Virus record (IMG/VR): IMGVR_UViG_3300023109_000016
Direction: 5' to 3' (one strand)
DNA from: an uncultured virus (IMG/VR IMGVR_UViG_3300023109_000016)
Lineage: Duplodnaviria > Heunggongvirae > Uroviricota > Caudoviricetes
Length of the DNA stretch: 64,000 nt
Of this stretch, positions 691 through 52,292 are shown in pieces. The translations under genes were made by a program, and so were the position numbers. Below the pieces are notes generated by a model that saw nothing but the letters and a program-made list of their open reading frames with translations, searched no databases and was not told the origin of the DNA. Within the stretch, counting starts at the first letter, position 1. Each line of letters begins with the position of its first letter.

Positions 691-1248
691 TTATTTTTGT
701 TCAAAGGGATTTTGGCTCCAATTCATAAAGGGCAACGGTTTATCCTTAACATATCCTAAAACGAGGGAGGTTAAATTCATAGTGGGATATAATGACCAAT
801 CAAATTTCCAATCTATAAGGTCTTTGGCATCCCAAGTTAAAAATCTGCCATCACTTTTTAAAAATGATTTTAAATCATCTGATATCGCATCAACGACCTC
901 GGACAACATTCCATTTCTCATTAGCGTTAGAAATTGAGAAACCGTTATAAAAAATGAATTGTTAATATCTGCCTTTCCATCGGAGTTATATTTTACGAAT
1001 CCCATCCAAGTTAATGTTTTATCCATGAAAAAACAGGATTCTGTTATTAGTCCAATCATTCCAATAGGGGGCTCCATTGCAAAAGGAGAGTTTTGAATTT
1101 CAACACTTATCTCTTTTTTCAAATCCCCTATTTTGGGCATGGTATAGTGCCTTATCTTATACTGATTCAATCCTGTAAAATAGGATTCCCACATAACTAC
1201 TGCCTGTGCAAAGTCTATCTTTGAAAGCGTATTTTGAAAATCACTCAT
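691..1248 (-). CDS. Hypothetical protein with C-terminal FMNW tag
   Basis: 185 aa, ends PFMNWSQNPFEQK; ATGA overlap with upstream gene. Confidence 0.8.
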   Translation of the reverse strand: MSDFQNTLSKIDFAQAVVMWESYFTGLNQYKIRHYTMPKIGDLKKEISVEIQNSPFAMEPPIGMIGLITESCFFMDKTLTWMGFVKYNSDGKADINNSFFITVSQFLTLMRNGMLSEVVDAISDDLKSFLKSDGRFLTWDAKDLIDWKFDWSLYPTMNLTSLVLGYVKDKPLPFMNWSQNPFEQK

Positions 1249-1928
1249 TTTCTCACCTCAAAGGGATTTTCTTTCCAATTCATAAATGATACCTTAGTAG
1301 TGTTAATCCATTCAGTAACATCTAACCTATAATCTGCTTGTATTTTTTTTAAAGGAGCCAAATAAATATTAAACCAAGGCTCAAATTCTCCTTTTAGTTC
1401 AGTATCTTCAGGGAACCAATCTAACATCCTTGATTCACCTCTTTTTGGAAGCATCATTTTACCCTTATTTTCAGACCAAAGGTTTAAAACATAAACAACA
1501 AAGTAATCATTCGTATTTGGAATGATTGTTCCTGCTGTAATTCTTTCCTCAAGGTAAACAACAAGACCGCCCTGACCCATGTAATATCTGCCTACTTCAT
1601 ATTCTGCTGGACTACCTCTCAATCCCTCATTTAATAAGAGTTCTACCTTTGAAGGGACATCCACTAAGTTTTTAAATACGGGATAATATTTTGCTATCTT
1701 TCTAAAAGAGGATACATAATATCCCATCTCTCTATATTTATCACAATCCTTTGCAAGGAGTTTAAAATCATATGTGATTTCAGCAGGGTGCGATGGATTT
1801 TTTCTTGAATTTCCAGAAAATTCCATATATTCTAATGTAATAAATGGAGACCATAAACTGAGAATATTATTCAAAATCTGAGTCTCATGGACAAGACCTT
1901 TCCTTTCATATTCCTCAATCCTAATCAT
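1245..1928 (-). CDS. Hypothetical protein with C-terminal FMNW tag
   Basis: 227 aa, ends SFMNWKENPFEVRK. Confidence 0.8.
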   Translation of the reverse strand: MIRIEEYERKGLVHETQILNNILSLWSPFITLEYMEFSGNSRKNPSHPAEITYDFKLLAKDCDKYREMGYYVSSFRKIAKYYPVFKNLVDVPSKVELLLNEGLRGSPAEYEVGRYYMGQGGLVVYLEERITAGTIIPNTNDYFVVYVLNLWSENKGKMMLPKRGESRMLDWFPEDTELKGEFEPWFNIYLAPLKKIQADYRLDVTEWINTTKVSFMNWKENPFEVRK

Positions 1929-2383
1929 TATTTCACCTCAAAGGGATTTTCGTTCCAATTCAAATAAATTTTAGGCAGACCCTTCCAAATATATGGGATT
2001 GCATCCTGTTTATTCACTCCGCCTTTCCATAGCCAATTTTCATATCTATTGGGATACTGATAATCATGCGATTTCTTTCTTACTGTAATATTTTTGTCAT
2101 ACGCTCCAGAGGAGAATTTATTCAAAGGAAACCCACTCAAAATATCTTCGCCCGACCTTTTATAAAAAATCACATCATAAATATCATAGAATATCCCCCA
2201 ACCTTCATCTGTAGTCCCATCTTCAAAATTGGTGAAAATATGAAATCTGGAATTAATACCGTTGAAATATCTATAAGAATGAAATATTATATCATCACCT
2301 TGAGGTATATATCCCTTCTTAACAGGCCTAAGCCCCTTTTCAAAAGTTTTTCTATCCATGCCTAAAAAGAAATTTAAATTCAT
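1928..2383 (-). CDS. Hypothetical protein with C-terminal FMNW-like tag
   Basis: 151 aa, ends YLNWNENPFEVK. Confidence 0.8.
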   Translation of the reverse strand: MNLNFFLGMDRKTFEKGLRPVKKGYIPQGDDIIFHSYRYFNGINSRFHIFTNFEDGTTDEGWGIFYDIYDVIFYKRSGEDILSGFPLNKFSSGAYDKNITVRKKSHDYQYPNRYENWLWKGGVNKQDAIPYIWKGLPKIYLNWNENPFEVK

Positions 2384-2427
2384 GATGCTCTATTATCAAT
2401 AATAGATTCTGTTATATAAAGATAATC

Positions 2428-2439
2428 TTTAAATAGTCG
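2428..2439 (+). promoter_or_regulatory. Class-L (putative late) TATA promoter TTTAAATAGTCG
   Basis: Same 12-mer at 4548(+), 36122(-), 44691(-), 52310(-), 63921(-), each about 22-23 nt before an ATG. Confidence 0.8.
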
Positions 2440-2457
2440 GAATGAGATTGTTTGATT

Positions 2458-2628
2458 ATGATGCTCAATGCTAAGGAAGAACAAGATTGGTTCGGTGCTG
2501 AATCTTATGAATCAGAATTCACAGATACTGTAAAGGTTGGATTTGCATTAGGTGCAGGTTTGGCTCTTTTCCAAGTTGCAGTTATTGCTACCGCAGTAAC
2601 TCTGGGAATGATTACGAACAAAGATTAA
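2458..2628 (+). CDS. Small membrane protein with FGAESYESE linker (not in ORF track)
   Basis: 56 aa MMLNAKEEQDWFGAESYESEFTDTVKVGFALGAGLALFQVAVIATAVTLGMITNKD; class-L promoter directly upstream. Confidence 0.75.
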   Translation: MMLNAKEEQDWFGAESYESEFTDTVKVGFALGAGLALFQVAVIATAVTLGMITNKD

Positions 2629-2630
2629 TA

Positions 2631-3071
2631 TTATTTGGTTTGAAATGGATTTTTAGTCCAATTCATGAATTCCCAATATCCAGCCCTTAATCCATATTTT
2701 TTTATATCCCAATCCTTCAAAATTCCATATTCCATAATTAATACTACTCTGAGGGGGTCATCCTCCAACAGATATTCCTCATATCTTTGAAGCCAATATT
2801 TCTTGACTCTCTGTAATATTTCTCCCATTTCAGCATATAATTCCTTAGAAAAGTAAAAAGGGCTTAAATCCGAATTCCCGTAAAAAGGGATTTTTTGACT
2901 TTCAAGTATACATTCCACAATCTCTTCGTAATTCATTTCAGTTATTGCTTTTGTAGAAATTGAATGCATCTTCCAAGCAAAAGGTCTTCTATCATCCGCC
3001 AAAATATGAGCATAAAATTCAGGCATACCTCCATCCATCAACCATTTTTTAGTCGCAGATTTGACTACCAT
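2631..3071 (-). CDS. Hypothetical protein with C-terminal FMNW tag
   Basis: 146 aa, ends EFMNWTKNPFQTK. Confidence 0.8.
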   Translation of the reverse strand: MVVKSATKKWLMDGGMPEFYAHILADDRRPFAWKMHSISTKAITEMNYEEIVECILESQKIPFYGNSDLSPFYFSKELYAEMGEILQRVKKYWLQRYEEYLLEDDPLRVVLIMEYGILKDWDIKKYGLRAGYWEFMNWTKNPFQTK

Positions 3072-3072
3072 A

Positions 3073-3573
3073 TTACTTCACCTTAAAAGGAGGTTCATTC
3101 CAATTCAAAAAATTGAAAGCACACTTACATCCCAAAACCTGTGAAGTAATACCATAAAGTGCCTGACCACTCCAAACATAGGTGTAGGTTCCATCTGGAT
3201 TAATTTTGTGTTGTCTGGCACTACTCCAAGTAGTTACTGCATTTAATCTAATATCCTCTAAAACGAGTGTTTCATCCTCTTCTCTATCTCTTAAATATTG
3301 GTAAACGCTTACAAAATAAGTATTCTCAGGATTAGTAGGGTCTATATATCCTGCATAAATAATATCCGAATCTACAAAAAACCCCTTTTCAGTTATACCC
3401 ATATAATCCAACTGGTTAGAACCGAAGAAAAGTGGGGGCCATTGAGTTTTTTTACCTAATTTTTTCCCTCTCCTCACATTCTGTTCCCAATATTTCTCGG
3501 TAGAATATGGATATTCCTTCAACACATAATATATCCAATCCCTCAACCTTTCAATAGATTCGGATTTATCCAT
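3073..3573 (-). CDS. Hypothetical protein with C-terminal FLNW tag
   Basis: 166 aa, ends NFLNWNEPPFKVK; TTTAAATAGC promoter upstream. Confidence 0.8.
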   Translation of the reverse strand: MDKSESIERLRDWIYYVLKEYPYSTEKYWEQNVRRGKKLGKKTQWPPLFFGSNQLDYMGITEKGFFVDSDIIYAGYIDPTNPENTYFVSVYQYLRDREEDETLVLEDIRLNAVTTWSSARQHKINPDGTYTYVWSGQALYGITSQVLGCKCAFNFLNWNEPPFKVK

Positions 3574-3639
3574 AATCTTACATTTTTATTCTGCTATTTA
3601 AAGTTAAGTTAATAAGGGTGTTTTGATTATCCTTCATTT

Positions 3640-4545
3640 ATGAGGTGGTATTCCAACAAAGCAGTTCAAGAAGGCATTGCTTCTGCAATGAAAAACAGAG
3701 AGGCAATCTGGGCTCAATTTCCGAGAAGTGGAGATGCACCCTTTTGGGCAAGAAGGACTAAGGTTACAGGCTCTGCCTCTGTTGATTATTGGACTAAGAC
3801 TTTGAACAGAGAATATAATTCTATCGGTGCTTTCTTCGGTTCTAACATCATAAATTGGGATGCTATGGACATGGAACCCCCTCCTTTGAGAAGTAAGCAA
3901 TTTTCAAGAAAACAATATGCAGAAATTTGGAAGCAATATCTAACACCTGAAGGTTGTGCAGAAAGAGGGCTTGATTGGGAAGACATCTGGGTCGGAAAAA
4001 CCTTAGTTTTTGATTTTGACAGTCCGCTCAATCCTATGAAATCATTTCACAAAGCAGACAAACTCGCCAGATACTTGAAGTCCCTCGGCTACGCACCTAT
4101 GGTTGTGTTTAGTGGCTCTAAAGGTTTTCACCTTCACCTAAATCAAGAAGATTCGGAAAAAGCAGTTGGTTTTAAGTTGGCTGATTGGAAACATTTAAGC
4201 GACCCTTTGAAAAAGATAGGGAAATTGTATGCTGAAAAGGTGGTAACATTGTGTGAGGAGGCTGAAGTTTCATATGCTAATGAGGATAGGTCGCCTAATT
4301 TTAGACAAGGAATCGTGAGGTGTCCGTATTCCATTCACCCTAAAACAGGTCAAATCGTTTGGCCTTTAGACGGTGCTAATTTAAGGGCTCTTAGAAAACA
4401 TAAAGAATTAAGCGTAATTGAGATTGTAAAGTTTTTACATCCTTGGGATATTCCTGTTCAATCCTTTATGGCTGAACAAGAATTGACATTTATTACTCCT
4501 GAATTCAAAATTTCTTCCAGAGGGATGCCTTTTTGGGAAGACTAA
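3640..4545 (+). CDS. priS: Archaeo-eukaryotic primase catalytic subunit (PriS-like)
   Basis: AEP motifs LVFDFD, FSGSKGFHL, IVRCPYSIHPKTG. Confidence 0.85.
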   Translation: MRWYSNKAVQEGIASAMKNREAIWAQFPRSGDAPFWARRTKVTGSASVDYWTKTLNREYNSIGAFFGSNIINWDAMDMEPPPLRSKQFSRKQYAEIWKQYLTPEGCAERGLDWEDIWVGKTLVFDFDSPLNPMKSFHKADKLARYLKSLGYAPMVVFSGSKGFHLHLNQEDSEKAVGFKLADWKHLSDPLKKIGKLYAEKVVTLCEEAEVSYANEDRSPNFRQGIVRCPYSIHPKTGQIVWPLDGANLRALRKHKELSVIEIVKFLHPWDIPVQSFMAEQELTFITPEFKISSRGMPFWED

Positions 4546-4547
4546 TC

Positions 4548-4559
4548 TTTAAATAGTCG
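4548..4559 (+). promoter_or_regulatory. Class-L promoter TTTAAATAGTCG
   Basis: Precedes ATG 4578 of a four-gene membrane protein operon. Confidence 0.8.
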
Positions 4560-4577
4560 TAAGAATTTAGAAGAGTT

Positions 4578-5459
4578 ATGAAGACTGCAGGTATTATAAT
4601 TGGAGTTTTAATGGTAGGTGGTGCAGTAGTAGCACTTTCTAACAACGCTTCTGCTTCTAATACAAATGTAGTAAGTGGTTGCACATTCCCAAATGCCACT
4701 AATTATAATCCTAATGCTACGGTTGATAATGGAACTTGCTTATTTGAAGAACAAGATGATTCTGAAAATTACCAACAACAAAAGGAAGAGCAAAGAGAGC
4801 AAGAAAGGGAACAACAACAACAACAACAACAACAAGAAGAATTGGAAGAAGTTGATTGTTCAGGATTTAAATCACAAAGTTCTAATATCCACGATGTCAT
4901 GCATTTAACGACAGGAACGGTTACTAAAGGCTATGCCGCAGGACACGCTCTTGAAAAATTGAATGTAAAGATTTATACTGATAAACAAAAATATTTGGCT
5001 GGAGAAAATATTATCATTTATACTTTAAAACAAAGATATTATGACCCTGCATTGGGTTCTGGAGGTTGGGAAGCATGGGGAACTGCAACTTCAAAAAGCG
5101 GAGAGGGAATGTCCATGTCTTTAAAGGTTCAATCCAATGATGAAATTTATAACTTATTCAATGGAAGTGCATTAAATGGTGCTACATTGGTTAAAGGATA
5201 TAAGCCTTTTAGTGGAAATATGGATAATTGGTCTTTTAGAAAAATTACTATTTCAACTGCAAGTTTATCTAATATTAAGGAACCTGTGAAATTTAAAATA
5301 TATTCTAAAATTGATATGGATGGTCATAAAGATAAATCAAAAACAAAGGAATCTGCATTCACGGTTTATCCTGCAAGTTGTTCCAAAACACAAGATGCAG
5401 AAAGTTACTCGCAAGATGAAGAAATTATGTCATTCCAATCATTCGTGTATCCTTGGTGA
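4578..5459 (+). CDS. Membrane-anchored or secreted protein with GCTxxxAxNYxxxAxxDxGxC motif and poly-Q
   Basis: N-terminal hydrophobic helix; GCTFPNATNYNPNATVDNGTC; (CAA)8 at 4812-4835; DAESY near C-terminus. Confidence 0.75.
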   Translation: MKTAGIIIGVLMVGGAVVALSNNASASNTNVVSGCTFPNATNYNPNATVDNGTCLFEEQDDSENYQQQKEEQREQEREQQQQQQQQEELEEVDCSGFKSQSSNIHDVMHLTTGTVTKGYAAGHALEKLNVKIYTDKQKYLAGENIIIYTLKQRYYDPALGSGGWEAWGTATSKSGEGMSMSLKVQSNDEIYNLFNGSALNGATLVKGYKPFSGNMDNWSFRKITISTASLSNIKEPVKFKIYSKIDMDGHKDKSKTKESAFTVYPASCSKTQDAESYSQDEEIMSFQSFVYPW

Positions 5460-5464
5460 TAATT

Positions 5465-6031
5465 ATGGGTAAATTAAAAACATTAACGAGCGTTTTTACG
5501 AAATCTGCTAAGGCAGGTGATGAATTAGTTTCAATTCAAGGAAAATCTCTTGATGAAGTTGGGCAGTTAATGGGTAAATCAGTAACCACTAATGGAAAAT
5601 TACAAATAGGGGCTGGTTGGAAACTTGTTGATGAATCAGGCTCTGTTTTGAAAACAGGTGGGCAATTTACTGATGAGATTCCTGCGGGTGCTAAATTATT
5701 GGATGTTAATAAGGCAAGAGCCGTCAAGGGAGTTCAAGGTGTAAATACTGCAAATGATTTTAGATTTCCCTTTTCTTCCAAAACAAGTTTTAGAATGGGA
5801 GTATTTGCCGTAATAGGATATACTGCTTGGGAATTAATTTCATTCGTAGGGGCAATTTCTTCTACATTAGGAGATGTTATCAATAACTTTTTTGGACTTG
5901 ATTGTCCAGAAACGGATGTTGAATGTCAAAAAGAAGCCTCTGATAAATTGGTTTACTTAGGAATGGGTATTGCCGCAGTAGGAGCCATCAGTTTATTCAA
6001 TTTCTTTAAGCCTTCTAAGAGGGAGGCTTGA
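5465..6031 (+). CDS. Membrane protein (2 TM, C-x6-C loop)
   Basis: ORF 5453..6031; GGTGA SD favours ATG 5465; two hydrophobic segments. Confidence 0.7.
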   Translation: MGKLKTLTSVFTKSAKAGDELVSIQGKSLDEVGQLMGKSVTTNGKLQIGAGWKLVDESGSVLKTGGQFTDEIPAGAKLLDVNKARAVKGVQGVNTANDFRFPFSSKTSFRMGVFAVIGYTAWELISFVGAISSTLGDVINNFFGLDCPETDVECQKEASDKLVYLGMGIAAVGAISLFNFFKPSKREA

Positions 6032-6035
6032 TAGA

Positions 6036-7028
6036 GTGTGGATGCAAACAGGCTCAGGTAAATCAGCAACCACTAAATGGGGTGGCGGTTCAATTTCATG
6101 TAAAACTTCTTTTAAAACAGAAATGTTTTTAGTCAATAAAGATAATAAAAGAGTAAATCCTACGCTTGAAAAAGGACAATATGTTTTCACGGAGATTAAT
6201 GCTGGAGATATAATTAGGTATAAAGTAGAGACAGGGGCAGAATCTAAAAAACCTGCTTCAGACAAATTCACATTTGTTGTTAATTCTATAAATTGGACTT
6301 ATCTAATCAATACTATGAATCAAATGATGGCAACTGCTACAGAAGAGGAAATCCAAGTTTGGAATTCTAATTCTAAAGCGTATCAAGCGGCTTTGGCAGA
6401 AAGGATTGATATGTCCAAATATATTGTAACGATTTTTAGCGAATTAAAATCTACTAATGAAGAAGGAATTTATGAGGGTTCAGTTAAAGTCCCATCAATA
6501 TGGGCCTCAGGACCTATCACTATCTCTTTATTTTATGGATATGATAACGATTTGAATACCTCGGATTTTTCAAGATATTTAAAGTCCTCTATTGATACAA
6601 TCGGGTGGATTGCTTTAGGAATTACAGTAGTAGCCATAACGATTGGAACTCTCGGAATAGGTGGTGCAGTAGCAGGTGGAATTGTAGCCATAGGAAGTTC
6701 AACGGCTATTTTAGCAATTGATGCAGTTGAAATTTCTTTGTTGCTTCATGAACAATTGACTCAAGGAATTTCTGCTCAAATAGGTAGAAATAAATATGGA
6801 TGTTCATTCCCAGAAGGAGGTTATCTACATATGTATAGTGGCGTAGTTATTAATCCTCAAAACGACCCGTTCCAAAATATCAGCCAAGAAACAATCCCGG
6901 AATCAGAGCAACAATCTGCCCTTAATATAGGTGGATTGAATCTTAATTTAAATACTATTTTGACAGTATTAGGAGGTGCAGGATTAATTATTTTAATTTC
7001 TTCCTTGGTAGGTGATACTAATGAGTGA
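6036..7028 (+). CDS. Membrane protein with long Gly/Ala-rich hydrophobic hairpin and C-terminal TM
   Basis: IGWIALGITVVAITIGTLGIGGAVAGGIVAIGSSTAILAI segment; C-terminal TM. Confidence 0.7.
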   Translation: MWMQTGSGKSATTKWGGGSISCKTSFKTEMFLVNKDNKRVNPTLEKGQYVFTEINAGDIIRYKVETGAESKKPASDKFTFVVNSINWTYLINTMNQMMATATEEEIQVWNSNSKAYQAALAERIDMSKYIVTIFSELKSTNEEGIYEGSVKVPSIWASGPITISLFYGYDNDLNTSDFSRYLKSSIDTIGWIALGITVVAITIGTLGIGGAVAGGIVAIGSSTAILAIDAVEISLLLHEQLTQGISAQIGRNKYGCSFPEGGYLHMYSGVVINPQNDPFQNISQETIPESEQQSALNIGGLNLNLNTILTVLGGAGLIILISSLVGDTNE

Positions 7029-7557
7029 AATTAAAACATTAAAATTGAAATCCTCAGATTGTGAACAAATTATTACAATCTCTGTAGAGCCTGATGTAAA
7101 ATATCAAAAATGGGCAGGAAGGTCTTTTTTTTCTACACCACCATTTACTAAAAACATAGTTATCACTTTAGAGGTTGATGGAGATTCTGCAATCCAAAAA
7201 CACTCTGTAAAAATGACGCTTCAAAAATTCCAAGGTTCACAAAGAATCATGAAAGATAGCACTTATCAAATATCAGGAGGACTGCCTTTGAGCATCCCTA
7301 TTGATTCTTATTCAAGTTATATTATGGAATTTAAAACAAACGAATGGGGTGAAGAATGTAAAAAACCAGAAGGTTCGGTTCAATACACTTTAATCAATCA
7401 AGGGGAAAAAATTTCAAATGAAAGTAACGGAAATAACGGAAACGGAGGAGGAGAGGGGAGCGAAGAGGTATCTCCTCTCATCACTCCTTTGAAAGTAACT
7501 GTTGCCATGCTTGCTGGAGGAGGAGTTTTCTTAGTAATGTCTTCAATATTTAAATAG
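7021..7557 (+). CDS. Beta-rich protein with C-terminal TM anchor
   Basis: ORF 7012..7557; AGGTGA SD before ATG 7021; Gly/Asn linker then TM. Confidence 0.7.
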   Translation: MSEIKTLKLKSSDCEQIITISVEPDVKYQKWAGRSFFSTPPFTKNIVITLEVDGDSAIQKHSVKMTLQKFQGSQRIMKDSTYQISGGLPLSIPIDSYSSYIMEFKTNEWGEECKKPEGSVQYTLINQGEKISNESNGNNGNGGGEGSEEVSPLITPLKVTVAMLAGGGVFLVMSSIFK

Positions 7558-7578
7558 GTGTAATGTAATAATAGCATC

Positions 7579-8166
7579 ATGCAGGATTATCCTAATTCTT
7601 TTGCAAAACAAGGCGAAGGTCTAAGAGGTCTTGAAGTAATCCCAGAATCTAAAGAGTTAGGATATTATATTATGCAGAAGGGTAATAGCCAATCCGCAGT
7701 TCCACATAGTTGTTATTGCCCTTCATGCTCATCAACAGATGAGTATAAATATGGAAAGGTTCAAAGAAAGTGGTCCTTAGATATTGCTGATTTAGAATTT
7801 AAGTTATCATATAAAAAGGATGAAAAAGGACTATATGCTTCTTGTGATGTATGCGGTTTTGATTTAAGAGAGGAATTATATATTGAGCCTCAAATCAAGG
7901 CAGAAACGCCTAAAGCAATTGAGAAGGAGATTATGATTCAAGGTGCTTATTTCAGCGAAGGATTTTATTGGATAGGTGTTGATGATTTCAAGAAAACTAT
8001 GATTAAATTTAGAGAAGGTGTTAAAGTAAAATTATGCATTCAACAAAAAATAGGTCCAAGTGTAAATATTTTAACAATGAGTCATGATGCATTCAAAAAT
8101 GCTTCTCAATTAAGTATGAAAAATCATAAAATCGGCATTCCAAGGAAATTTTGGATAAACAATTAA
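7579..8166 (+). CDS. Zinc-ribbon protein
   Basis: CPSC...CDVC; TTTAAATAG promoter upstream. Confidence 0.65.
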   Translation: MQDYPNSFAKQGEGLRGLEVIPESKELGYYIMQKGNSQSAVPHSCYCPSCSSTDEYKYGKVQRKWSLDIADLEFKLSYKKDEKGLYASCDVCGFDLREELYIEPQIKAETPKAIEKEIMIQGAYFSEGFYWIGVDDFKKTMIKFREGVKVKLCIQQKIGPSVNILTMSHDAFKNASQLSMKNHKIGIPRKFWINN

Positions 8167-8208
8167 ATAGTCAATTATTTTATATAGGTATACGGAAGAG
8201 TGTTTGGC

Positions 8209-8793
8209 ATGGACCTTAAGTATGAGATGCAATCTTTTATGAATAATTGTGGCGGTGAAGATTTAATTAGATATTTGATTAAAGAGGATGGGATTCTAAA
8301 TTGGAAAACAATTGAATTGCAACCCGTTATCGCTTATTCTCCCAAACACATGGATTCAGCAGTAATTGCAGGAATTGCATATTGGAAAGGAACTTCGTAT
8401 GAAATTATTGTTTCAGAACAAAATTTCAATAATCCTGTTTTTGAAGAATGGGTTAATTATTTAATGGAAAAAAGTCATTACGATACGGTGGCTCACGCTC
8501 TCCTTGACCATCACAAAGCAATTGTAGTTTCATCAAGAGAGATGGCAGAATCTAAAACCAAATCTTGGGAAGAAATAGTAACCGAAGTTATTTATGGAAC
8601 CAGAAAGAATAACTTTGAAGAATTGGTAAAAACAGATACAATAATTAAAGAAATAGATATTCTTTCAAAGATTTTTGATGCTTTACTATCTTCTGGAGGT
8701 AGTTCAGTTGTTACAGACTATAACAATTCAAAGGCACAAACTAAGAAAAGATTGCCCACATTTGATACTGAATGGCAAAAAAGATGGGCATAA
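8209..8793 (+). CDS. Hypothetical protein
   Basis: ORF 8200..8793; TTTATATAGGTAT promoter favours ATG 8209. Confidence 0.65.
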   Translation: MDLKYEMQSFMNNCGGEDLIRYLIKEDGILNWKTIELQPVIAYSPKHMDSAVIAGIAYWKGTSYEIIVSEQNFNNPVFEEWVNYLMEKSHYDTVAHALLDHHKAIVVSSREMAESKTKSWEEIVTEVIYGTRKNNFEELVKTDTIIKEIDILSKIFDALLSSGGSSVVTDYNNSKAQTKKRLPTFDTEWQKRWA

Positions 8794-8824
8794 TCTTTAA
8801 ATATGAAGAAGATAATTGTTAGAT

Positions 8825-10183
8825 ATGGCGTATAATGCTCAGAAGCAAATGGAAACCTACCAGAGAAGGTTGGATATCCTAAATCTTAGGAGAATTATGT
8901 CAATGGGAAGACCTGCCTCTTCAAAAATGGAACAATTTTATGTCAATAATTACCTTTTTACCCCCGAAATGCAAGCAATGGGAATGTATAAAGATGGTTT
9001 TCATTATGGAAGGCAAGAAGGTTCTGGAGAAGGAAATTTGATTATTAAAATTGGCGAAGGTTCAAAAACTCTTTTTTCCAGTCACACCGATACAGTTCAC
9101 AGAACTGGAGTTGAACAAAATGTCATTATTGACCCTACTCAAGATAAATTGAAATTTACTACAGATAGTGGTCAATGTCTTGGAGGAGATGATGGAACAG
9201 GGGTTTGGTTGATGTTAGAATTGATTAAAGCAGGAGTTCCGGGGTTGTATATTTTTCACAGAGCAGAAGAAGTAGGAGGTCAAGGCTCATCTTATATTGC
9301 AAATTCCACTCCAGAACTAATTGAAGGATATGAAAGAGCAATTGCGTTTGACAGAAAAGATGATTGGAGTATTATTACGCACCAATCAGGTGTTAGAACT
9401 TGCTCTCCTGAATTCGCTAAAGATTTGGCAAAAGAATTAAGTATGGGTCACAGAGCAGATAGCACAGGCTCATTTACAGATACTGCAAATTATGATACAA
9501 TCATTCCCGAATGCACTAACCTTTCAGTAGGATATCACAATGCACACTCAGCCAGAGAAAATCAAGAGATTGATTATCTTTTAGAGTTTAGAGATGCTTT
9601 AATTAAAGTAGATTGGGAAAACTTAGTTACTGTCAGAGACCCTGAAGAAGTAGAATATTCTAATACAGGATATTATGGATATGGTAGCACATTGGTTAGA
9701 CCCTCTAAAAAGACCAGAGATAAAGTCGGCTGGAGCGATTATGACGATATGATGTTTGAGAAGGAAAAAGAATCCAAATCAAAAACGATTGATATTGAAG
9801 ATGGAGATTGGGGTGAAGAGGTCGGAGGAGATGTAGGTTTAGATATTCTGTTTGAAAAGTCTTCCTCTTCAAATGAGGAATTGCTTGAAAAACTGATTAA
9901 TAAAGATTTGATGTCTTTGACAGAAGAAGAGAATTTATTGTTATATAGGATAGACGATAACGATTTGACCGAAGAGGAAGCCGTTAAGGAATTAAAAAGA
10001 ATTTGGAATATTTCCGACGATAATTATGAAGGCCTTGATGATTTCCTTGACGATTATCCGAAAGGCGATAAAACCTCTAAAGAAGATTTTGATGATTGGG
10101 AAGATATTGAAGAATCAGAAAAAACCGATATGGCAGACATGGAAGGTTCGGATTACGATTGGAATAGATGGTTCAACCCTTAG
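8825..10183 (+). CDS. M20/M28-family zinc peptidase with long acidic C-terminal tail
   Basis: SHTDTV, GGDDGTGV, AEEVG, FDR and HNAH Zn-ligand motifs; ORF 8816..10183, TATA spacing favours ATG 8825. Confidence 0.85.
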   Translation: MAYNAQKQMETYQRRLDILNLRRIMSMGRPASSKMEQFYVNNYLFTPEMQAMGMYKDGFHYGRQEGSGEGNLIIKIGEGSKTLFSSHTDTVHRTGVEQNVIIDPTQDKLKFTTDSGQCLGGDDGTGVWLMLELIKAGVPGLYIFHRAEEVGGQGSSYIANSTPELIEGYERAIAFDRKDDWSIITHQSGVRTCSPEFAKDLAKELSMGHRADSTGSFTDTANYDTIIPECTNLSVGYHNAHSARENQEIDYLLEFRDALIKVDWENLVTVRDPEEVEYSNTGYYGYGSTLVRPSKKTRDKVGWSDYDDMMFEKEKESKSKTIDIEDGDWGEEVGGDVGLDILFEKSSSSNEELLEKLINKDLMSLTEEENLLLYRIDDNDLTEEEAVKELKRIWNISDDNYEGLDDFLDDYPKGDKTSKEDFDDWEDIEESEKTDMADMEGSDYDWNRWFNP

Positions 10184-10219
10184 AAACACTTAAGAAGGTA
10201 TCTTGATAAGTTTTAGTTC

Positions 10220-10507
10220 ATGCCAAAGAAAAATCAATGGATTGGGCTTGTTGAGAAAATTCTTAAAAATCAAGCCATGAGTAGCACAGAACTTGCATAT
10301 AGAATTAAGCAAAATTACAGGAGAATATCTCCTCATGCCAGAGATGTAACTTTGGTTTTAAAGAATTTCTCTGACAAATTCCAAATCATTGAAGAAACAA
10401 CAGTAAATTCAACTATTAGCAATCACCAAGTCAAACTCTGGGGCTTAAAAGGATACATTTATGATTTCAAATATCCACACTTCGCTCTGGAAGGTGCAGA
10501 TTATTGA
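10220..10507 (+). CDS. Putative winged-helix DNA-binding protein
   Basis: AMSSTELAYRIK...PHARDVTLVL...KLWGL pattern. Confidence 0.55.
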   Translation: MPKKNQWIGLVEKILKNQAMSSTELAYRIKQNYRRISPHARDVTLVLKNFSDKFQIIEETTVNSTISNHQVKLWGLKGYIYDFKYPHFALEGADY

Positions 10508-10516
10508 GGTGATTAA

Positions 10517-10831
10517 ATGAGAGTCTGTAGTGGTTGCGGTATTTCAGGACATAACATCAAAACCTGCCCTAATAAAAATTTCCAAGAGGGAGAGGTCGTA
10601 TTGAAAACTAAGTTAAAGTCCTTTTTTAAGGGTGTAGAGCATAAAAGGTGGAATAAAGGAGATTGGATTACACACCCTGCTACTGATAAATTGAAAGACA
10701 ACAAATATACTATTACAGAAATTACTGAAAATGATAAAGTAAAGATTGTTGTTTTTGAATCTAAAAATCAAAAATTAAAAAATTACTTTATTAAAATTAA
10801 TGGAGTTCAAAGGCTAACCTTTATAGCATAG
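10517..10831 (+). CDS. Zinc-knuckle protein
   Basis: CSGCGISGHNIKTCP; GAGGTGA SD. Confidence 0.7.
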   Translation: MRVCSGCGISGHNIKTCPNKNFQEGEVVLKTKLKSFFKGVEHKRWNKGDWITHPATDKLKDNKYTITEITENDKVKIVVFESKNQKLKNYFIKINGVQRLTFIA

Positions 10832-10882
10832 AGGCGTAAACCTTATATAGTATAAAATATAGGGCAATATGGAGGGAGTTTA

Positions 10883-11824
10883 ATGACTTTCCAAGATGAT
10901 GAATTAAATATGGAAATTATAGAAGTAAAGCAATGTAGTGATTGCAAATCAAGAGAATTTGAACACAATGCCAGAACAGGCGAAGATGTTTGTATGAATT
11001 GCGGTCTTGTTTATTCAAACATGGCTATTGATGAAGGACCTGATTGGAGAAGTTATGAAGATACTTCTCAAGAACAATCTGGTGAAAGAACAGGTATGCC
11101 AACTACCAATCTTTTGCACGATAAAGGATTGACAACAGATATCGGATGGAAGAATTCAGATTATTCAGGTTCAAACCTTTCATCTATGAACAACAAACTG
11201 TTTAGAAGGCTAAGAAGGCAACATCAAAGAACCAGAATTTCATCATCAACCGAGAGAAATCTTGCAGTAGCCTTAGGAGAGTTGCAAAGATTAGCGGCTC
11301 AAATGGCGTTGCCCAGAGATGTTAGAGAAGAAGCGGCTTATATTTACAGAAAAGCCGTTGAAAAGAAACTTGTAAGGGGAAGGTCTATTGAAGGCGTAGT
11401 AGCCGCTTCACTTTATGCGGCTTGCAGAATGAGGAAGATTCCAAGAACGCTTGATGAAGTAGGAGAATTTTCCAGAACGGGTAGGAAAGAAATCGGAAGA
11501 ACATTTAGAGCAATTGCAAAAGAGTTGAGGATTATGGTTCATCCTTCAAATCCAAAAGATTATATTGATAGATTTTGTTCAGTTTTAGAATTGCCAAGAG
11601 AAGTAATTACTCAAGCACACAATATTGTTGATAGAGCCGAGCAAATTGATTTGACGGCAGGAAGAGGTCCTACCGGTATTGCGGCGGCTTCAGTTTATCT
11701 CGCTTCTAAGATGAGGGGTTTTGAAAGAACTCAAAAAGAAGTTTCCGATGCGGCAGGAGTAACTGAAGTAACTATCAGAAACAGATACAAAGAAATGTGT
11801 AACGCATTAGACATTAACTTGTAA
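10883..11824 (+). CDS. tfb: Archaeal transcription initiation factor TFB (TFIIB)
   Basis: Zn ribbon CSDC..CMNCGLV, DEGPDWR B-reader, LHDKGLTT, two cyclin repeats (RGRSIEGVVAASLY; GRGPTGIAAASVY...VTEVTIRNRYKE). Confidence 0.97.
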   Translation: MTFQDDELNMEIIEVKQCSDCKSREFEHNARTGEDVCMNCGLVYSNMAIDEGPDWRSYEDTSQEQSGERTGMPTTNLLHDKGLTTDIGWKNSDYSGSNLSSMNNKLFRRLRRQHQRTRISSSTERNLAVALGELQRLAAQMALPRDVREEAAYIYRKAVEKKLVRGRSIEGVVAASLYAACRMRKIPRTLDEVGEFSRTGRKEIGRTFRAIAKELRIMVHPSNPKDYIDRFCSVLELPREVITQAHNIVDRAEQIDLTAGRGPTGIAAASVYLASKMRGFERTQKEVSDAAGVTEVTIRNRYKEMCNALDINL

Positions 11825-11830
11825 ATAATG

Positions 11831-11843
11831 TTTATATAGGTAT
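11831..11843 (+). promoter_or_regulatory. Class-E (putative early) promoter TTTATATAGGTAT
   Basis: Recurs near 8179, 16062, 20210, 26976 and 27174, mostly ahead of replication-block genes. Confidence 0.75.
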
Positions 11844-11860
11844 TGGGGAAAGGGTTAGTT

Positions 11861-12376: not shown

Positions 12377-12409
12377 ACAATTAAATAGGAAGGAAATTAT
12401 TTTTAACCT

Positions 12410-12583
12410 ATGAGGCTAATTCATAATAAGACTCCTGTATCTCAAGAGTTTGCATGGAATAGTCATAAAGATAACTTCCTCCTATTTGAATGGAGAATCT
12501 GCAATCATTGCAGTTTAACTTTCAACATTCAAAATCAAGGAATATTTTATTGGTGCGGGTGTGTTAAAAATGAAGAAAATTAA
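12410..12583 (+). CDS. Small Cys-containing protein (not in ORF track)
   Basis: 57 aa with CNHC...CGC; TTAAATAGG upstream at the usual spacing. Confidence 0.45.
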   Translation: MRLIHNKTPVSQEFAWNSHKDNFLLFEWRICNHCSLTFNIQNQGIFYWCGCVKNEEN

Positions 12584-13127: not shown

Positions 13128-13162
13128 AAACTTATATATAGGTCTTAAGGAGTTGGTAAATT

Positions 13163-14866: not shown

Positions 14867-14897
14867 ATCTTTTCATTCTCTTCTTGATACTTAAAGA

Positions 14898-16030: not shown

Positions 16031-16050
16031 ATTTTTAAATAATTACTTTT

Positions 16051-48145: not shown

Positions 48146-49396
48146 TTACTGTTCATTTGGCTCAGAAGCCTCTACCTGAACATTTTGACTGAAAAGGTTC
48201 TTTTTGAAAGTATCTACATTTTCAGGAGTAATCGTAATGTTTTGTTCCAACAATTTTAAAGCAATCAAGCAATCAACACCATCATAAAGCGTGTATTTAA
48301 AGAAGGCTTGAAGTTTTCCAAGTTCAGTAACTTGAATGTAGGTTTCTTGCCCTGTTGCTGATTGATTGTCATTATAACAAGTTAATCTTAAATCCCAAGT
48401 TTGAGTCGGTAGGATGTAAACAGGAGTTTGAACTCTGTCACTACAGGCATTGAATTGCTCTGTTAAAGGATAAGGGGCTACATTTCCGGGGATGCCATCT
48501 CTTGCAACGCCATCAGGGTCTTTAAAATATCCTGTAGTATTAACATAGAATTGCATATAGGCTCTGGGACCTCCTAAGGAATTTCTAATCTTACTCCCTC
48601 TATAGTCTTCTAAATCCCATGTCCCTCCTCCTTGAGCATTTCCGGGGAAAAAGGATGTGGGGGTGCATCCAAAATTCTCAACAACAATAAATTGTGATTC
48701 TTTAGTCATAGGCTTATTCTTTAATTTATTTCCCTTTTCAATAAATACTGAAAAGGATTCTCCTAATTGGACTACATTAGTATCTTGTGAAGTAAAGATA
48801 GGATTAATTTCAGTAACTGTATAAGCGGCTGAAAGATTATAAGGAGGGCCGGGTGAAATATATATGATATTACTTACTGAAAATCCAGAACCTCCTGAAA
48901 CGATGCTCGGTGTGCCACTCACCTCTCCTGTGGCAGTAACGGAAGAAACATTAAATGTAGCATCACCATTCCCACCCGCTACTGAATAATTTCCTGTTGA
49001 AAAATCAAAACCATATCCCAATGAAACTAATCCACCATTAGGTGGTGTAAGAGGAGGGGCTGGAATAATATAAGTTCCATTGCCATCTCCTCCTGCAATA
49101 CTGCCTGTATCACCAATAGCATATCCACTTCCGGGATTTACAACTTCTACAGTAGTGATGTCTCCAGAACCGCCTACGCTTGTGATATTTAAAGTTAATA
49201 CTGCGTTTCCACTACCTGTAGTTACTGTGGTAGTGGTAATTCCTGTAGAATATCCTAAACCAATACCAGTTATATTAACTTGATTTACGCTTGAAGTTAA
49301 ACCTGCAAGTGGGACAATAGTTTTAATTGACCCTGTTTGGGTTGAACCCTTTCCTCTTGCAAGGTCCCAATTCCATACTTGACTTCTCATTGCCAT
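48146..49396 (-). CDS. Capsid-protein paralogue with large Gly-rich insertion (putative spike or turret)
   Basis: MAMRSQVW.W start and FKYTLYDG.D.LIA.KLL end; insert of about 170 aa with GSGY-type repeats. Confidence 0.7.
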   Translation of the reverse strand: MAMRSQVWNWDLARGKGSTQTGSIKTIVPLAGLTSSVNQVNITGIGLGYSTGITTTTVTTGSGNAVLTLNITSVGGSGDITTVEVVNPGSGYAIGDTGSIAGGDGNGTYIIPAPPLTPPNGGLVSLGYGFDFSTGNYSVAGGNGDATFNVSSVTATGEVSGTPSIVSGGSGFSVSNIIYISPGPPYNLSAAYTVTEINPIFTSQDTNVVQLGESFSVFIEKGNKLKNKPMTKESQFIVVENFGCTPTSFFPGNAQGGGTWDLEDYRGSKIRNSLGGPRAYMQFYVNTTGYFKDPDGVARDGIPGNVAPYPLTEQFNACSDRVQTPVYILPTQTWDLRLTCYNDNQSATGQETYIQVTELGKLQAFFKYTLYDGVDCLIALKLLEQNITITPENVDTFKKNLFSQNVQVEASEPNEQ

Positions 49397-49397
49397 A

Positions 49398-50033
49398 TTA
49401 TCTTCCCCCTGTCATTGTTAAAGAGGCTACATTGTTAGCCAAAGCATTCATTTTATACCAATCTACATTGTTTTGATTAACGGGCAAATTTTGAGAAAGT
49501 AAAGAATTAGCAATTATGGCATCTACTCCGTCATAAAGAGTGTAAAAAATCATAACTCCTACAGTTCCTCCTTCATTACCCTTACCGCCCGACATTCCTT
49601 GCATAGACTTGTATTCAAAAGAGAATTTTTGTCCGGGCAAAATATAAAGAGGAGGGTCTAATTTATATGAAGACATAGAAACAGAAGAGCCTGTGCCTCC
49701 TTGATTATTTGAATACGGAGAAGCACCGCAAGGGTAAGGGCTTGCTGATGCAGGAATGCCATCGGCAGGAAGGCCATCTGGGTTTTGATAATATGCTGTA
49801 GTATTCACAGTAATTTGAAGAAAACTTTGATTTGTAGGAGTAATTCCAATATCTTCAATAACGACAAATTCATTAGGTTTTGCTTTGGCAGGAATCGTGG
49901 TTTGATTACCTACGCTTCCAGTAAATACATCATAAGAAGCACCTGCATCAATAGTTTGAGGCGTTGCATTCACGCTTCTTGAAGTTGAAGAGCCTAAGTT
50001 AGACCATTCCCATGCTTGGATTCTAACACCCAT
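49398..50033 (-). CDS. Capsid-protein paralogue (putative minor capsid protein)
   Basis: FVVIEDIG, VNTT.Y..NPD, YILPGQ, YTLYDG.DAIIAN, NVDWYK. Confidence 0.7.
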   Translation of the reverse strand: MGVRIQAWEWSNLGSSTSRSVNATPQTIDAGASYDVFTGSVGNQTTIPAKAKPNEFVVIEDIGITPTNQSFLQITVNTTAYYQNPDGLPADGIPASASPYPCGASPYSNNQGGTGSSVSMSSYKLDPPLYILPGQKFSFEYKSMQGMSGGKGNEGGTVGVMIFYTLYDGVDAIIANSLLSQNLPVNQNNVDWYKMNALANNVASLTMTGGR

Positions 50034-50082
50034 AGGTTTAAAAGTGTTGCACGACTATTTAATACTTATTAAAATTTTAAAT

Positions 50083-50158
50083 AAAAAAAAACCCCTCCTG
50101 AACCCACCCGAAGATGAGAACAAAAGGGGGAAACCCTGCTCCCTAAGGAGCAAGGGTT
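50083..50158 (-). terminator. Double hairpin plus U-tract after putative major capsid genes
   Basis: AACCCUUGCUCC-UUAG-GGAGCAGGGUU, then CCCC...cUUCGg...GGGG-U9; G-U pairs fit the minus strand. Confidence 0.85.
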
Positions 50159-50189
50159 ATTGGAATCTTAACTAACCTCTTTAAGAGCC

Positions 50190-50795
50190 TCAAACGGTTG
50201 CCGAAGCACCGCTGATGAGAGTTCTCTTATACCAGTCTACATTGCCGGGGTTGACGCTAATGCCCATCTCCAACAGTTTGTTAGCGATTAGAGCGTCTGG
50301 ACCATCGTAAAGGGTATACTTAACGAATGCTTGGTGTGTGCCAGCAGTTGTTGAACCCTCGTAGTGGGTGTAAAGAGCATCCCAAGTTTGACCGGGTAGG
50401 ACATATACATCAGGGTATAGGTTGAAAGATGGTTGGTTGCTGATGGTCCTTGGGTAAGGAGCCGCAGTTCCCGAAATACCATCGTTTCCGATGTTGTCTG
50501 GGTCAAGGAAGTAATCAGTTGTGTTGATTCTTACTTGGATGTATGCTCTTGGTCCACTAAACCAGTTGGTTACAGATGTTCCGACAAACAAATCGGTTGC
50601 GGTGCATCCAATGTCTTCAATAACCACGAACTGAGTAGCGGTGGTCTCGGCTGGCTTGGTGATGTTGTTACCTACGCCACCAATGAAGATGGAGTAAGGT
50701 CTTGCGGTAGCAAGAGTGTTTCCTGCACCAACTGCACTTCCACCAAAGCCACTTCTGGTTGCATCCCATTCATAGACTTGACTTCTCATTGCCAT
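50190..50795 (-). CDS. Putative major capsid protein 2
   Basis: MAMRSQVYEW; near-identical blocks with the upstream gene; C-ending codon bias; strong 3' structure. Confidence 0.65.
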   Translation of the reverse strand: MAMRSQVYEWDATRSGFGGSAVGAGNTLATARPYSIFIGGVGNNITKPAETTATQFVVIEDIGCTATDLFVGTSVTNWFSGPRAYIQVRINTTDYFLDPDNIGNDGISGTAAPYPRTISNQPSFNLYPDVYVLPGQTWDALYTHYEGSTTAGTHQAFVKYTLYDGPDALIANKLLEMGISVNPGNVDWYKRTLISGASATV

Positions 50796-51442
50796 TAAGC
50801 AACACCTCCGTTTGTAGCAGGAGCAGACGCTTGCTCAATCAGAGTTCTCTTATACCAATCAACATTGTTTGGGTTGACGGTAACACCGAGTTCCAATAGT
50901 TTGTTTGCAATTAGTGCATCTGGACCATCGTAAAGGGTATACTTGACGAAACAAGCAACACCAGTAGTTCCACCACCTGACGAACTTGAGCCCTCTACAT
51001 CCGTTTGACAGGAGTAAAGGACACCCCATGTTTGTCCCGGAAGGACATAAACATCAGGATATAGGTTAAAGGAAGATAGAACATAGTTCGTTCCAGTTGG
51101 AGACCCAGCGGAATCAGCACCTACAGGGTAGGGGCTTGCGAGACCGGGGATACCATCTTGCTTTGTTACATCGGGATTTTGGAAGTAATCCGTTGTGTTA
51201 ATTCTAACTTGGACCGCACTACCATTCTGAGGGGAAGAAGAAATATCTTCAATGACCACGAACTGAGTAGCGGTGGTCTCGGCTGGCTTAGTAATGTTGT
51301 TACCAAATCCGCCGATGAAGATATCATATTCCCTACCAGAAGTTAGCCCAACAGGAGCGCAGTTTGCCGCTCTCCTAATTGTGCTGTTATTTCCAACAGT
51401 AGCGAGGTTTGCCCATTCATATACTTGACTTCTCATTGCCAT
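50795..51442 (-). CDS. Putative major capsid protein 1
   Basis: MAMRSQVYEW...GNNITKPAETTATQFVVIEDI...FVKYTLYDGPDALIANKLLE; leader with GAGGTGA SD and TTTAAGTAG promoter. Confidence 0.65.
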   Translation of the reverse strand: MAMRSQVYEWANLATVGNNSTIRRAANCAPVGLTSGREYDIFIGGFGNNITKPAETTATQFVVIEDISSSPQNGSAVQVRINTTDYFQNPDVTKQDGIPGLASPYPVGADSAGSPTGTNYVLSSFNLYPDVYVLPGQTWGVLYSCQTDVEGSSSSGGGTTGVACFVKYTLYDGPDALIANKLLELGVTVNPNNVDWYKRTLIEQASAPATNGGVA

Positions 51443-51518
51443 ATTTTGTTCACCTCAATATTTTATCGTAGTCCCTTAGGACTTATTATATAGTTTGTAT
51501 TTATTACTACTTAAACCT

Positions 51519-52292
51519 TTAGGTTTTATTAAAAGGAGAAGAATTCCAATTCATAAATGGTTTTGAAATCTTTCTTGGTTGCCAAATTGTTGAGAACCAT
51601 TGATAAGGAGTTAAATCAGATAGGAGTTTTTTGGAAAGGCTATCGTTATCATAAATTTCTTCCACCCATTTTTTATACCTTACGAATTGCCACTTAATCC
51701 AAGACCACTCCTCATAATCATCATAAGGAACAGGATATCCAAAATATCCTAACAATAATATATCCTGCATTCTTAAATTTACATGAGGATTTTCTCTCCC
51801 ATCCCACTTCCTATCATATTTTTCTTCCCAAACTTGAACACAGATGTTATTCATTTTGATTTTTATTTCTGTAATCATTTCAAGTTCTTCATCATCACCA
51901 GAAAAATATGCCATGCCATCATAAAGCATACTGTTAAAAGCCTTAAGGAAAAAAACATCATACAAATGAATTTCCTTTAAAGATATTGAATAATCAGAAA
52001 TTCTATCTCTCCCATCCTCCTCTAACTTCATTGGAAGATTATTGTAAAGATATTTATCAAACCATTCCTTCTTTATTTCTAAGGGGATTTTGAGTTTGGC
52101 ATAATTTCCCAATTCTACATCATCTTCAATTTCTTTAACAGAATAAGAATCGTATATTGGTTTTACAAAAGGAGGAAGTGTAAAATTTAGGTTTTGATAA
52201 TTATTGAAATAATAGTAAATAACTTCATCACTCATTTCTTCCCTTACTTTTAAGAAAATATCTTTCCAAGCAGGGTGAATCCAAAAAGCCAT
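51519..52292 (-). CDS. Hypothetical protein with C-terminal FMNW tag
   Basis: Ends PFMNWNSSPFNKT; TTTAAATAGTCG promoter. Confidence 0.8.
   Translation of the reverse strand: MAFWIHPAWKDIFLKVREEMSDEVIYYYFNNYQNLNFTLPPFVKPIYDSYSVKEIEDDVELGNYAKLKIPLEIKKEWFDKYLYNNLPMKLEEDGRDRISDYSISLKEIHLYDVFFLKAFNSMLYDGMAYFSGDDEELEMITEIKIKMNNICVQVWEEKYDRKWDGRENPHVNLRMQDILLLGYFGYPVPYDDYEEWSWIKWQFVRYKKWVEEIYDNDSLSKKLLSDLTPYQWFSTIWQPRKISKPFMNWNSSPFNKT

Follow-up and report, generated by a model that had tools for sequence, protein, structure and literature searches.

A family-wide terminal peptide tag on unrelated proteins of virus-like, PolD-encoding elements from marine archaea

Introduction

In bacteriophage T4 the internal proteins carry an N-terminal capsid targeting sequence (CTS), which is removed by the head protease. 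According to PMC3012670, the internal proteins of T-even phages are diverse defence proteins that share only this CTS and are polymorphic between relatives; they act in counter-defence and are encapsidated by means of the CTS. In this work we describe a short peptide tag found at or near the ends of 16 otherwise unrelated proteins encoded in a 64,000-nucleotide stretch of DNA of an uncultured virus (IMG/VR record IMGVR_UViG_3300023109_000016; the whole stretch is called the window below), which is part of a virus-like, PolD-bearing element from marine archaea. A full-text search, mainly of open-access texts, yielded no publication on an FMNW-type motif or on this element family, and the available part of the paper on Poseidoniales viruses (PMC11706807) contains no occurrence of PolD or DP2. 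Our verdict is that the peptide is a real, family-wide and undescribed docking tag.

The window encodes PolD DP2, TFB, an MCM-like helicase, a primase, UvdE, GNATs, a glycosyltransferase and a classic AAA ATPase. Its relatives with a common core are five syntenic records of 123–166 kb and one 35-kb fragment (G001–G006), with inverted terminal repeats at the ends of G002 and G003. Additional genes of G002 encode DP1, PCNA, TBP, a ligase, a Get3/ArsA ATPase, a MoxR-like AAA protein and an ATPase that weakly matches HerA and the terminase family; the PCNA, recognised by a PCNA_N match in G002, belongs to a cluster that spans G001–G004 and has no member within the window. We infer that the hosts are Poseidoniales (Marine Group II), the order name for the genome G008 being our own reading.

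Results

The tag is defined here as two hydrophobic residues followed by N-W, with a further hydrophobic residue three to nine places on; in the window clade it takes the form F-[MLI]-N-W-x-x-x-P-[FWL]. Genes are named by their lower coordinate. A six-frame scan of the window with the pattern [FYW][MLIVF]NW gave 16 matches, 15 inside genes and one in a 61-codon antisense frame. With the 85 called genes as the base (one mis-oriented entry had been left out beforehand), the [FY][MLI]NW peptides were terminal, i.e. no more than 15 amino acids (aa) from an end, in 15 cases out of 15, while 2000 per-protein shuffles gave means of 0.33 copies in total (maximum 3) and 0.05 terminal copies (maximum 2), which bears out the terminal enrichment proposed in the original prediction. 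The eleven open reading frames (ORFs) for which a C-terminal tag had been reported were all found again by the scan; their tags (F/Y-[ML]-N-W-x-x-x-P-[FWL], then 3–5 aa) place F/Y 12–14 aa upstream of the stop, with P at +7 in 11/11. The four N-terminal tags (17592, 38428, 38973 and 39833) are likewise present, each with F at position 7, the start of 38973 being taken as the ATG at 39548. The variant FMNFWETPF stands 45 aa upstream of the stop of 22259–22966, ahead of a basic tail as had been claimed; the gene begins at 22259, and the start given originally, 22304, is a later ATG of the same ORF. Tagged genes lie on the minus strand in 14 of 16 cases. Not counted were the peptides FENW/FMDW of 40344 and FMEW of 33536, which occupy internal positions and are not kept as N-W in G001.

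The tag is terminal, independent of the protein body that carries it and, with lineage variants, conserved across the family. A metagenome scan for FMNWxxNPF codons gave at least 122 stretches, from which in-frame C-terminal tags were kept by eye; about 90 internal or off-frame matches were dropped, and L067 and L068, which repeat the window's first genes, were excluded. This left at least 29 loci with in-frame C-terminal tags. Of these 29 loci among the matches listed, 21 match an untagged ORF of the window or G001, four match tagged window genes only, and four are linked through tagged homologues elsewhere in the family. One locus, L054, has 13 consecutive tagged genes. Six syntenic slots hold tagged genes again in relatives whose core genes are ~60–78% identical to those of the window, and 0/23 body pairs from these slots co-cluster. 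The tag is retained in 6/7 homologues of the 2631 protein (35–61% identity) and is invariant in 15/15 rows of a Get3-adjacent family, the bodies of which look mosaic. The retention of tags on swapped bodies, suggested earlier as a check, was thus observed both in syntenic slots and in families diverged to 35%.

In the more distant relatives the peptide changes its form. Terminal LNW/INW accounts for 14/31 in G002 (shuffle mean 2.9), 13/25 in G003 (2.8), 7/26 in G005 (2.3) and 5/10 in G006 (0.9). In G002 and G003 the variant is LNW at the C-terminus, after which comes F-P or a short helix-like tail; in G005 it is an N-terminal V-I-N-[WFY], and G006 has one IINW. In G001 five proteins end in I-x-[AS]-Y-N-[FYH], a pattern that was picked post hoc and is terminal in 5/7 occurrences (shuffle mean 0.06). 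Terminal NW was found in 0/9 in G004, where one LVNW, 29 aa away from an end, is a possible case. Since the window clade and G001 are sisters, separate from G002 and G003, in the DP2 and 16618 trees (midpoint root only), the N-W tag is probably ancestral and the YNF ending of G001 derived. The N-W core is kept between lineages that are only 54–57% identical in DP2. The exact tag pattern gave four matches in viral_contigs, none of them in ORFs of at least 30 codons.

Between strains, 15/24 differences in positions 1–20000 fall in tagged genes, which make up 27% of the bases (p 0.0004; one DNA run, contigs only); of the codons that changed in that run 10/13 are non-synonymous, and the tags themselves contain no changed codon. 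Besides 2454, the only variable patch of run X3 outside tagged genes consists of eight strain differences at 6242–6423 in gene 6036–7028. In three contigs of 44–46% GC (L058, L066 and L088) FMNWKPNPF occurs 15 residues into a frame of 192 codons.

At the DNA level, 82 matches occur in the window and the 29 loci among the matches listed, 69 of them C-terminal and four N-terminal. The 67 distinct C-terminal tags were analysed further, N and W being invariant by search design and the scan favouring N-P-F. Usage of TTT and CCN in the tags equals the background. A coupled downstream ORF accompanies a Shine–Dalgarno (SD)-like tail in 35/37 cases, compared with 2/30 for ends without such a tail (p 3e-14). 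The residues after P-[FWL] are thus largely the SD site of the next gene, EVK, GDLK and LEE being read-outs of GGAGGTGA-type sites. The synonymous identity of tags within genomes is 0.725 vs 0.527 expected from codon bias (L054 0.79, window 0.67); between genomes the excess is smaller (0.62 vs 0.53), and AAT makes up 88% in tags vs 72% in the background. The excess within genomes suggests that tag-bearing gene ends are copied onto new bodies, the peptide being held by selection. Neither out-of-frame nor intergenic copies were found in the window by the six-frame scan. The claim that selection acts on the peptide consequently stands for the core, with its codon-varied F/Y and M/L/I swaps and its lack of out-of-frame copies; it does not extend to the tail, which is an SD site, and the tags share DNA ancestry. 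In L054 the promoter of the 13-gene array is separated from its first gene by an 11-codon ORF with only the second half of the tag and an SD site (L054:6225–6320).

The tagged proteins of the window are 146–257 aa long, contain 13–20% F+W+Y and have no transmembrane segments in any of the 16 (best 19-residue hydropathy 1.26); their 16 bodies form 16 separate clusters. The only likeness is borderline, between 691 and 3073 (blastp E 0.01; profile E 0.003, where decoys reached 0.0008). The earlier description of these bodies as aromatic-rich, free of transmembrane segments, of ~145–260 aa and mutually dissimilar is therefore accurate, and by sequence they are not one homologous family. Pfam and PHROG searches assigned none of the 16 bodies to a family and gave one sub-threshold Pfam match, on 30701; NCBIfam and PADLOC searches of the tagged proteins produced nothing meaningful. 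When 109 bodies (some partial) from the window and relatives were compared, 73 clusters remained after profile rounds with decoys, and only one further pair of clusters was merged by these rounds. A search with a 40-aa region for further tagged proteins found one homologue only. The ESM Atlas gave no result for 1245; an AlphaFold2 model of a tagged family from L019 reached a predicted local distance difference test (pLDDT) score of 44, and Foldseek with this model gave no match at E 0.001. Among the bodies of the family are proteins of 78–177 aa with CxxC motifs, including a 78-aa CxxC protein and a CxxC-rich one of 170 aa, and G002_76973, which has two SAP domains (Pfam E 1e-19) and IMNW 31 aa before its end. 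The bodies are a heterogeneous set, and the few readable parts suggest nucleic-acid or transcription targets.

One of these parts is the first 29 aa of the 2631 protein (2985–3071, minus strand), which are 76% identical to the N-terminus of an archaeal Rpo1C; the match recurs in 41/41 genomes of G008's order, often twice. In the one case of the second match type that was examined, the match is to an Rpo5-like protein (weak Pfam match) that starts with the same N-terminal module. By sequence similarity, this segment appears to be derived from host RNA-polymerase subunits. In G008's order itself Rpo1C and the Rpo5-like subunit both open with the same extra module of ~45 aa (L218:193-843, L180:1501-3036). 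The search for host-derived pieces covered seven of the 16 window bodies; for 22259, 51519, 14898, 19535, 691 and 38428 there was no credible match in the 13 genomes searched for each, the only exceptions being two weak matches that run across stop codons.

Promoters are mostly situated 28–29 nucleotides upstream of the ATG, fall into two classes and are conserved across the family. The structural-type class reads TTAA[AG]TA followed by GTC/GCA/TCA-type bases, the replication-type class is a TATA box followed by GGT/AGT, and the near-fixed spacing implies leaderless transcripts. In seven records the ratio of structural-type to replication-type promoters was 46:5 for presumed structural genes, 4:41 for replication genes and 27:7 for tagged genes, nine more of the latter being without assignment. 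In the window 11/16 tagged genes are under a structural-type promoter, directly or through their operon, the other five having no class at strict spacing; in close relatives 11/43 have a promoter of the structural type themselves, and 25 follow an upstream tagged gene to which they are coupled. The classic AAA gene has a replication-type promoter in 5/6 genomes, the MoxR-like gene a structural-type one in 3/5 cases. RNA contigs X1 and X2 overlap parts of some tagged genes, which carries no information on level, strand or timing.

As G001 is the lineage with the changed tag, a lead to the partner was sought in the core gene that has changed fastest there. This gave 53718–54107 (minus strand), a 129-aa core protein with a conserved N-terminal part of ~60 aa, accelerated in G001, which we treat as a candidate reader predicted to bind the tag, and as a lead only. 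Over 62 columns its identity to G002/3/5 is 33% in G001 vs 54% in the window, compared with differences of −5 to +5 points in 25 other core-gene comparisons; in a relative-rate count, applied to 27 genes, it had 25 changes unique to G001 and 5 unique to the window (p 0.0003). Stronger rate outliers were 48146, whose best matches are probably paralogues, and the fibre-like 32518. The 53718 profile had no match in 201 genomes of G008's order, and a complex prediction from the tag alignment, the 53718 N-domain (two copies) and the 56984 N-domain scored 0.02 against a threshold of 0.32, which speaks neither for nor against binding. In 151 genomes of the presumed host order the full motif shows no enrichment, with 30 matches against 30 for the reversed control; two of the 30, each in a single genome, lie close to where a long open frame begins, and no match lies at a conserved terminus, so no host motif that the tag might mimic was found there.

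The core gene 56984–58006 (minus strand) encodes a conserved N-terminal domain of ~155 aa that belongs to no known family, together with A-E repeats and a tail anchor; the diverged copy of G004 has no tail anchor. The idea that 56984 is missing in the tagless G004 was rejected on a profile match (E 7e-9), and its acceleration in G001 is not significant (21 vs 11, p 0.11). The ESM Atlas gave no result for its domain.

The tagged genes of the window are distributed as follows. At the left end, all on the minus strand, are 691–1248 (185 aa; FMNWSQNPF at 703–729; a tagged L010 homologue, 34%), 1245–1928 (227 aa; FMNWKENPF at 1260–1286), whose tail GAGGTGA is the SD site of the 691 gene and whose homologues in L115, L116 and P0002 retain the tag, 1928–2383 (151 aa; YLNWNENPF at 1940–1966), which forms a family with L054/L075 bodies (profile E 2e-6), 2631–3071 (146 aa; FMNWTKNPF at 2643–2669) and 3073–3573 (166 aa; FLNWNEPPF at 3085–3111), with a structural-type promoter at 3594–3601. 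Inside this cluster lies a small untagged plus-strand ORF, 2446–2628, which contains GAESYES and has a hydrophobic end; the matching slot of L020 is likewise taken by a small gene. Further along the minus strand follow 14898–15551 (217 aa; FMNWKEYPW at 14916–14942) and 15548–16030 (160 aa; FMNWTETPF at 15563–15589; structural-type promoter 16052–16059), and then 18837–19538 (233 aa; FLNWDSNPF at 18849–18875) and 19535–20110 (191 aa; FMNWDSNPL at 19550–19576; structural-type promoter 20174–20181). The two plus-strand genes are 17592–18155 (187 aa; N-terminal FMNWGFKP at 17610–17633), which has a TTTATATA box at −28 and was assigned to neither promoter class, and 22259–22966 (235 aa; the variant at 22829–22855; structural-type promoter 22217–22224). 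The remaining genes, again on the minus strand, are 30701–31183 (160 aa; FLNWKLSPW at 30716–30742), three with N-terminal tags, namely 38428–38913 (161 aa; FMNWHENKP at 38869–38895), 38973–39551 (192 aa; FINWHQNIKP from 39530 downward) and 39833–40339 (168 aa; FMNWGFEP from 40321 downward), and 51519–52292 (257 aa; FMNWNSSPF at 51531–51557; structural-type promoter 52313–52320). Three untagged aromatic-rich genes of 152–177 aa at 54147–55601 (minus strand) resemble the tagged set, 54608 having an internal FMDWEFSAE.

The paralogue sets 33536–35841 and 48146–51442 presumably encode beta-rich capsid proteins; PDB profile searches with A7 and A2 gave nothing meaningful. Gene 16618–17439 (minus strand) is among the most conserved of the family (46–78% identity) and has a C-terminal hydrophobic segment and no library match. 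It carries E...H-G-H-P...S-S-T-D, which we take to resemble a JAMM/MPN metalloprotease site, and is a candidate maturation protease. A second recurrent motif, [FY][EDNS]AE, has 16 copies in 11 proteins at 23963–63658 of the window vs 1.9 in shuffles, and 22 vs 4.3 in G001; its carriers are mostly acidic, many with a terminal hydrophobic segment, and the motif looks like repeated protease sites. A third tag-like element, an N-terminal M-C-x-T-C-G-C-x-x-A-E, is found on tail-anchored proteins (60410–60859, 60866–61702 and several G001 genes). Contigs of the element family (L141–L144) are binned in metagenome-assembled genomes labelled Woesearchaeota, Rickettsiales and others, probably by mis-binning.

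Discussion

It is highly probable that the tag is a portable short linear motif by which fast-turning, unrelated soluble proteins dock on one conserved partner of the element. Of the original prediction of a position-flexible motif that docks variable cargo on one partner, the portable terminal peptide on unrelated bodies is supported by terminal enrichment, the lack of out-of-frame copies in the window and swapped bodies, while for the partner there is a candidate only. What docking is for can be said less firmly. We lean slightly towards particle loading, in which the tagged proteins would be made together with the structural genes, the partner would be a particle-assembly protein and the cargo would be carried into the next host; the promoter class gives this proposal, already made in the original prediction, indirect support. 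By analogy with T4, the overall picture of a docking tag that loads variable effector cargo into the particle in the manner of a capsid-targeting sequence has about an even chance of being correct. A gene end with the tag and an SD site would be copied onto a new or captured sequence, the copying itself being supported by the synonymous identity, and would also provide the ribosome-binding site of the next gene, giving translationally coupled arrays. The product would be made alongside the structural genes and its tag would bind a particle-assembly protein, possibly through the N-terminal domain of 53718–54107; in the next cell the cargo may act on defence or transcription, as the T4 analogy suggests. 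Candidate cargo types are the RNA-polymerase N-terminal mimic, the SAP domains, the Zn fingers and the basic tail.

Several observations weigh against particle loading. The 27:7 promoter ratio of tagged genes is not separable from the 304:173 of the genome's other genes (p 0.09), and our labels 'early' and 'late', with the timing deduced from them, are our own, operon members and related genomes not being independent. Genes 17592 and 1928 have TTTATATA boxes, as replication genes do, five tagged genes of the window have no class, and the N-terminal INW genes of G005 are replication-type in 4/4 cases (with odd spacing). The capsid is predicted only: the presumed capsid paralogues have no family-library or PDB match, and their AlphaFold2 model is unusable (pLDDT 37). 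As for the candidate reader, G004 keeps 53718 (61% to G002/3/5) yet has terminal NW in 0/9, the co-divergence concerns one lineage whose pattern was picked after it had been seen, and among clusters common to at least four genomes no core protein was found that itself bears a conserved copy of the tag at an end.

The most serious alternative is that the tag docks effectors on an intracellular hub, such as the transcription machinery of host or virus, a chaperone, the MoxR-type or classic AAA ATPase or a proteasome feeder, as an adaptor library without any packaging, which we regard as rather unlikely. Conservation of the N-W core across lineages only 54–57% identical in DP2 is what a slowly evolving partner predicts, one body mimics an RNA-polymerase N-terminal module, and the family encodes TBP, TFB, Get3, a MoxR-like AAA protein, the gene of which has a structural-type promoter in 3/5 cases, and a classic AAA protein. 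The latter, however, is replication-type in 5/6 genomes, so that the AAA+ recruitment option of the original prediction loses some ground, and the host-order genomes have neither an excess of the motif nor a conserved terminus with it. A different docking site is envisaged if the tag is a non-canonical PCNA-interacting protein (PIP) box for viral or host PCNA, its hydrophobic-x-x-W approximating PIP positions 4–7. PCNA is encoded in G001–G004, the bodies include DNA-binding domains, and QYPFMNFW of 22259 comes near Q-x-x-h-x-x-F-W, though as the only tag to fit. The PIP consensus has Q at position 1 and an aromatic pair at 7–8, whereas Q stands at −3 in only 6/67 tags and the residue after W is mostly N, T, K or D. 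DP2 (27204–30644 in the window, and relatives) ends in a different, truncated PIP-like Q-x-[TSR]-L-[FW] in 5/6 genomes, and tagged genes as a group do not share the promoter class of replication genes (p 1e-10), all of which makes this explanation improbable.

The coupling of SD-like tails to downstream ORFs (35/37 vs 2/30), the excess of synonymous identity within genomes together with the AAT bias, and the mini-ORF with half a tag ahead of the L054 array would all be expected if the motif acted chiefly as DNA, namely as a junction repeat that includes a ribosome-binding site and serves cassette shuffling, with the peptide as a by-product. The six-frame scan of the window, however, gave no out-of-frame or intergenic copies, the swaps F/Y, M/L/I and F/W/L use different codons with TTT and CCN at background, four copies are N-terminal and in frame, and G002/G003 keep LNW with different tails; we hold this explanation to be quite improbable. 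Least credible of all is that the bodies are one extremely diverged fold family of which the motif is a part, in spite of their similar size and aromatic bias, the small sub-families, the borderline 691–3073 pair and the low confidence (pLDDT 44) of the model of a tagged family. The tag occurs at either end, profile rounds brought together just one more pair of clusters, and the bodies include the two-SAP-domain protein, the 78-aa CxxC and CxxC-rich 170-aa proteins and the RNA-polymerase-derived N-terminus.

Going beyond particle loading as such, we may imagine an open cargo-loading system in undescribed PolD-encoding, probably membrane-containing archaeal viruses. An end of ~40 bp with the tag and a ribosome site would make cargo of any gene fragment, captured pieces of host RNA polymerase included, 53718–54107 would read the tag and co-evolve with it, and tail anchors with F-x-A-E cleavage sites would form a second, membrane-bound route. 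In this full form the scheme is speculative and probably incorrect in some of its parts.

From the point of view of annotation, the tag unites dozens of anonymous ORFans in a single functional class, for which a nine-residue signature is enough to search. On this basis we expect a reservoir of proteins for host takeover or counter-defence, directed against abundant uncultured marine archaea, against which, to our knowledge, almost no effectors are known. It also points to a route by which new viral genes may gain instant function, the copied gene end supplying an address together with translational coupling. The tag and its candidate readers can be tested with synthetic peptides, for which culture of the virus or host is not needed.

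Among described systems, magroviruses and other Poseidoniales viruses are likewise large viruses of marine archaea that bring replication genes of their own and presumably have a similar host (PMC11706807); this family differs in its DP1/DP2, Get3, inverted terminal repeats (G002, G003) and many tail-anchored proteins. For an attC-like cassette site, whose DNA would be conserved beyond the peptide and in any frame, a comparison of identity and frame points both ways, with an excess of synonymous identity within genomes and no out-of-frame copies in the window. PIP boxes and the clamp-binding tails of T4 gp45 partners are also short hydrophobic peptides at either terminus of unrelated proteins, and this family encodes PCNA, but the tag has no conserved Q or aromatic pair and goes with the other promoter class, and DP2 has a separate PIP-like tail. 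The F-box and poxviral ankyrin-PRANC receptor libraries resemble the tagged set in combining a variable body with a constant terminal docking element; here that element measures nine residues instead of a whole domain, the bodies are not built as repeats of a single fold, and there is no known ligase. The T4 CTS resembles the tag in being a short conserved peptide common to otherwise diverse small proteins. The tag is unlike the CTS in being mostly C-terminal, with either end possible (11/15 in the window; 69/73 terminal copies in the window and 29 loci among the matches listed), and in overlapping an SD site, and we claim no similarity between the two sequences. It is borne by an element with PolD and no recognised HK97 capsid or portal, for which packaging is a proposal. 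On present evidence, and by analogy, the tag would work like a CTS while standing outside that class by its position.

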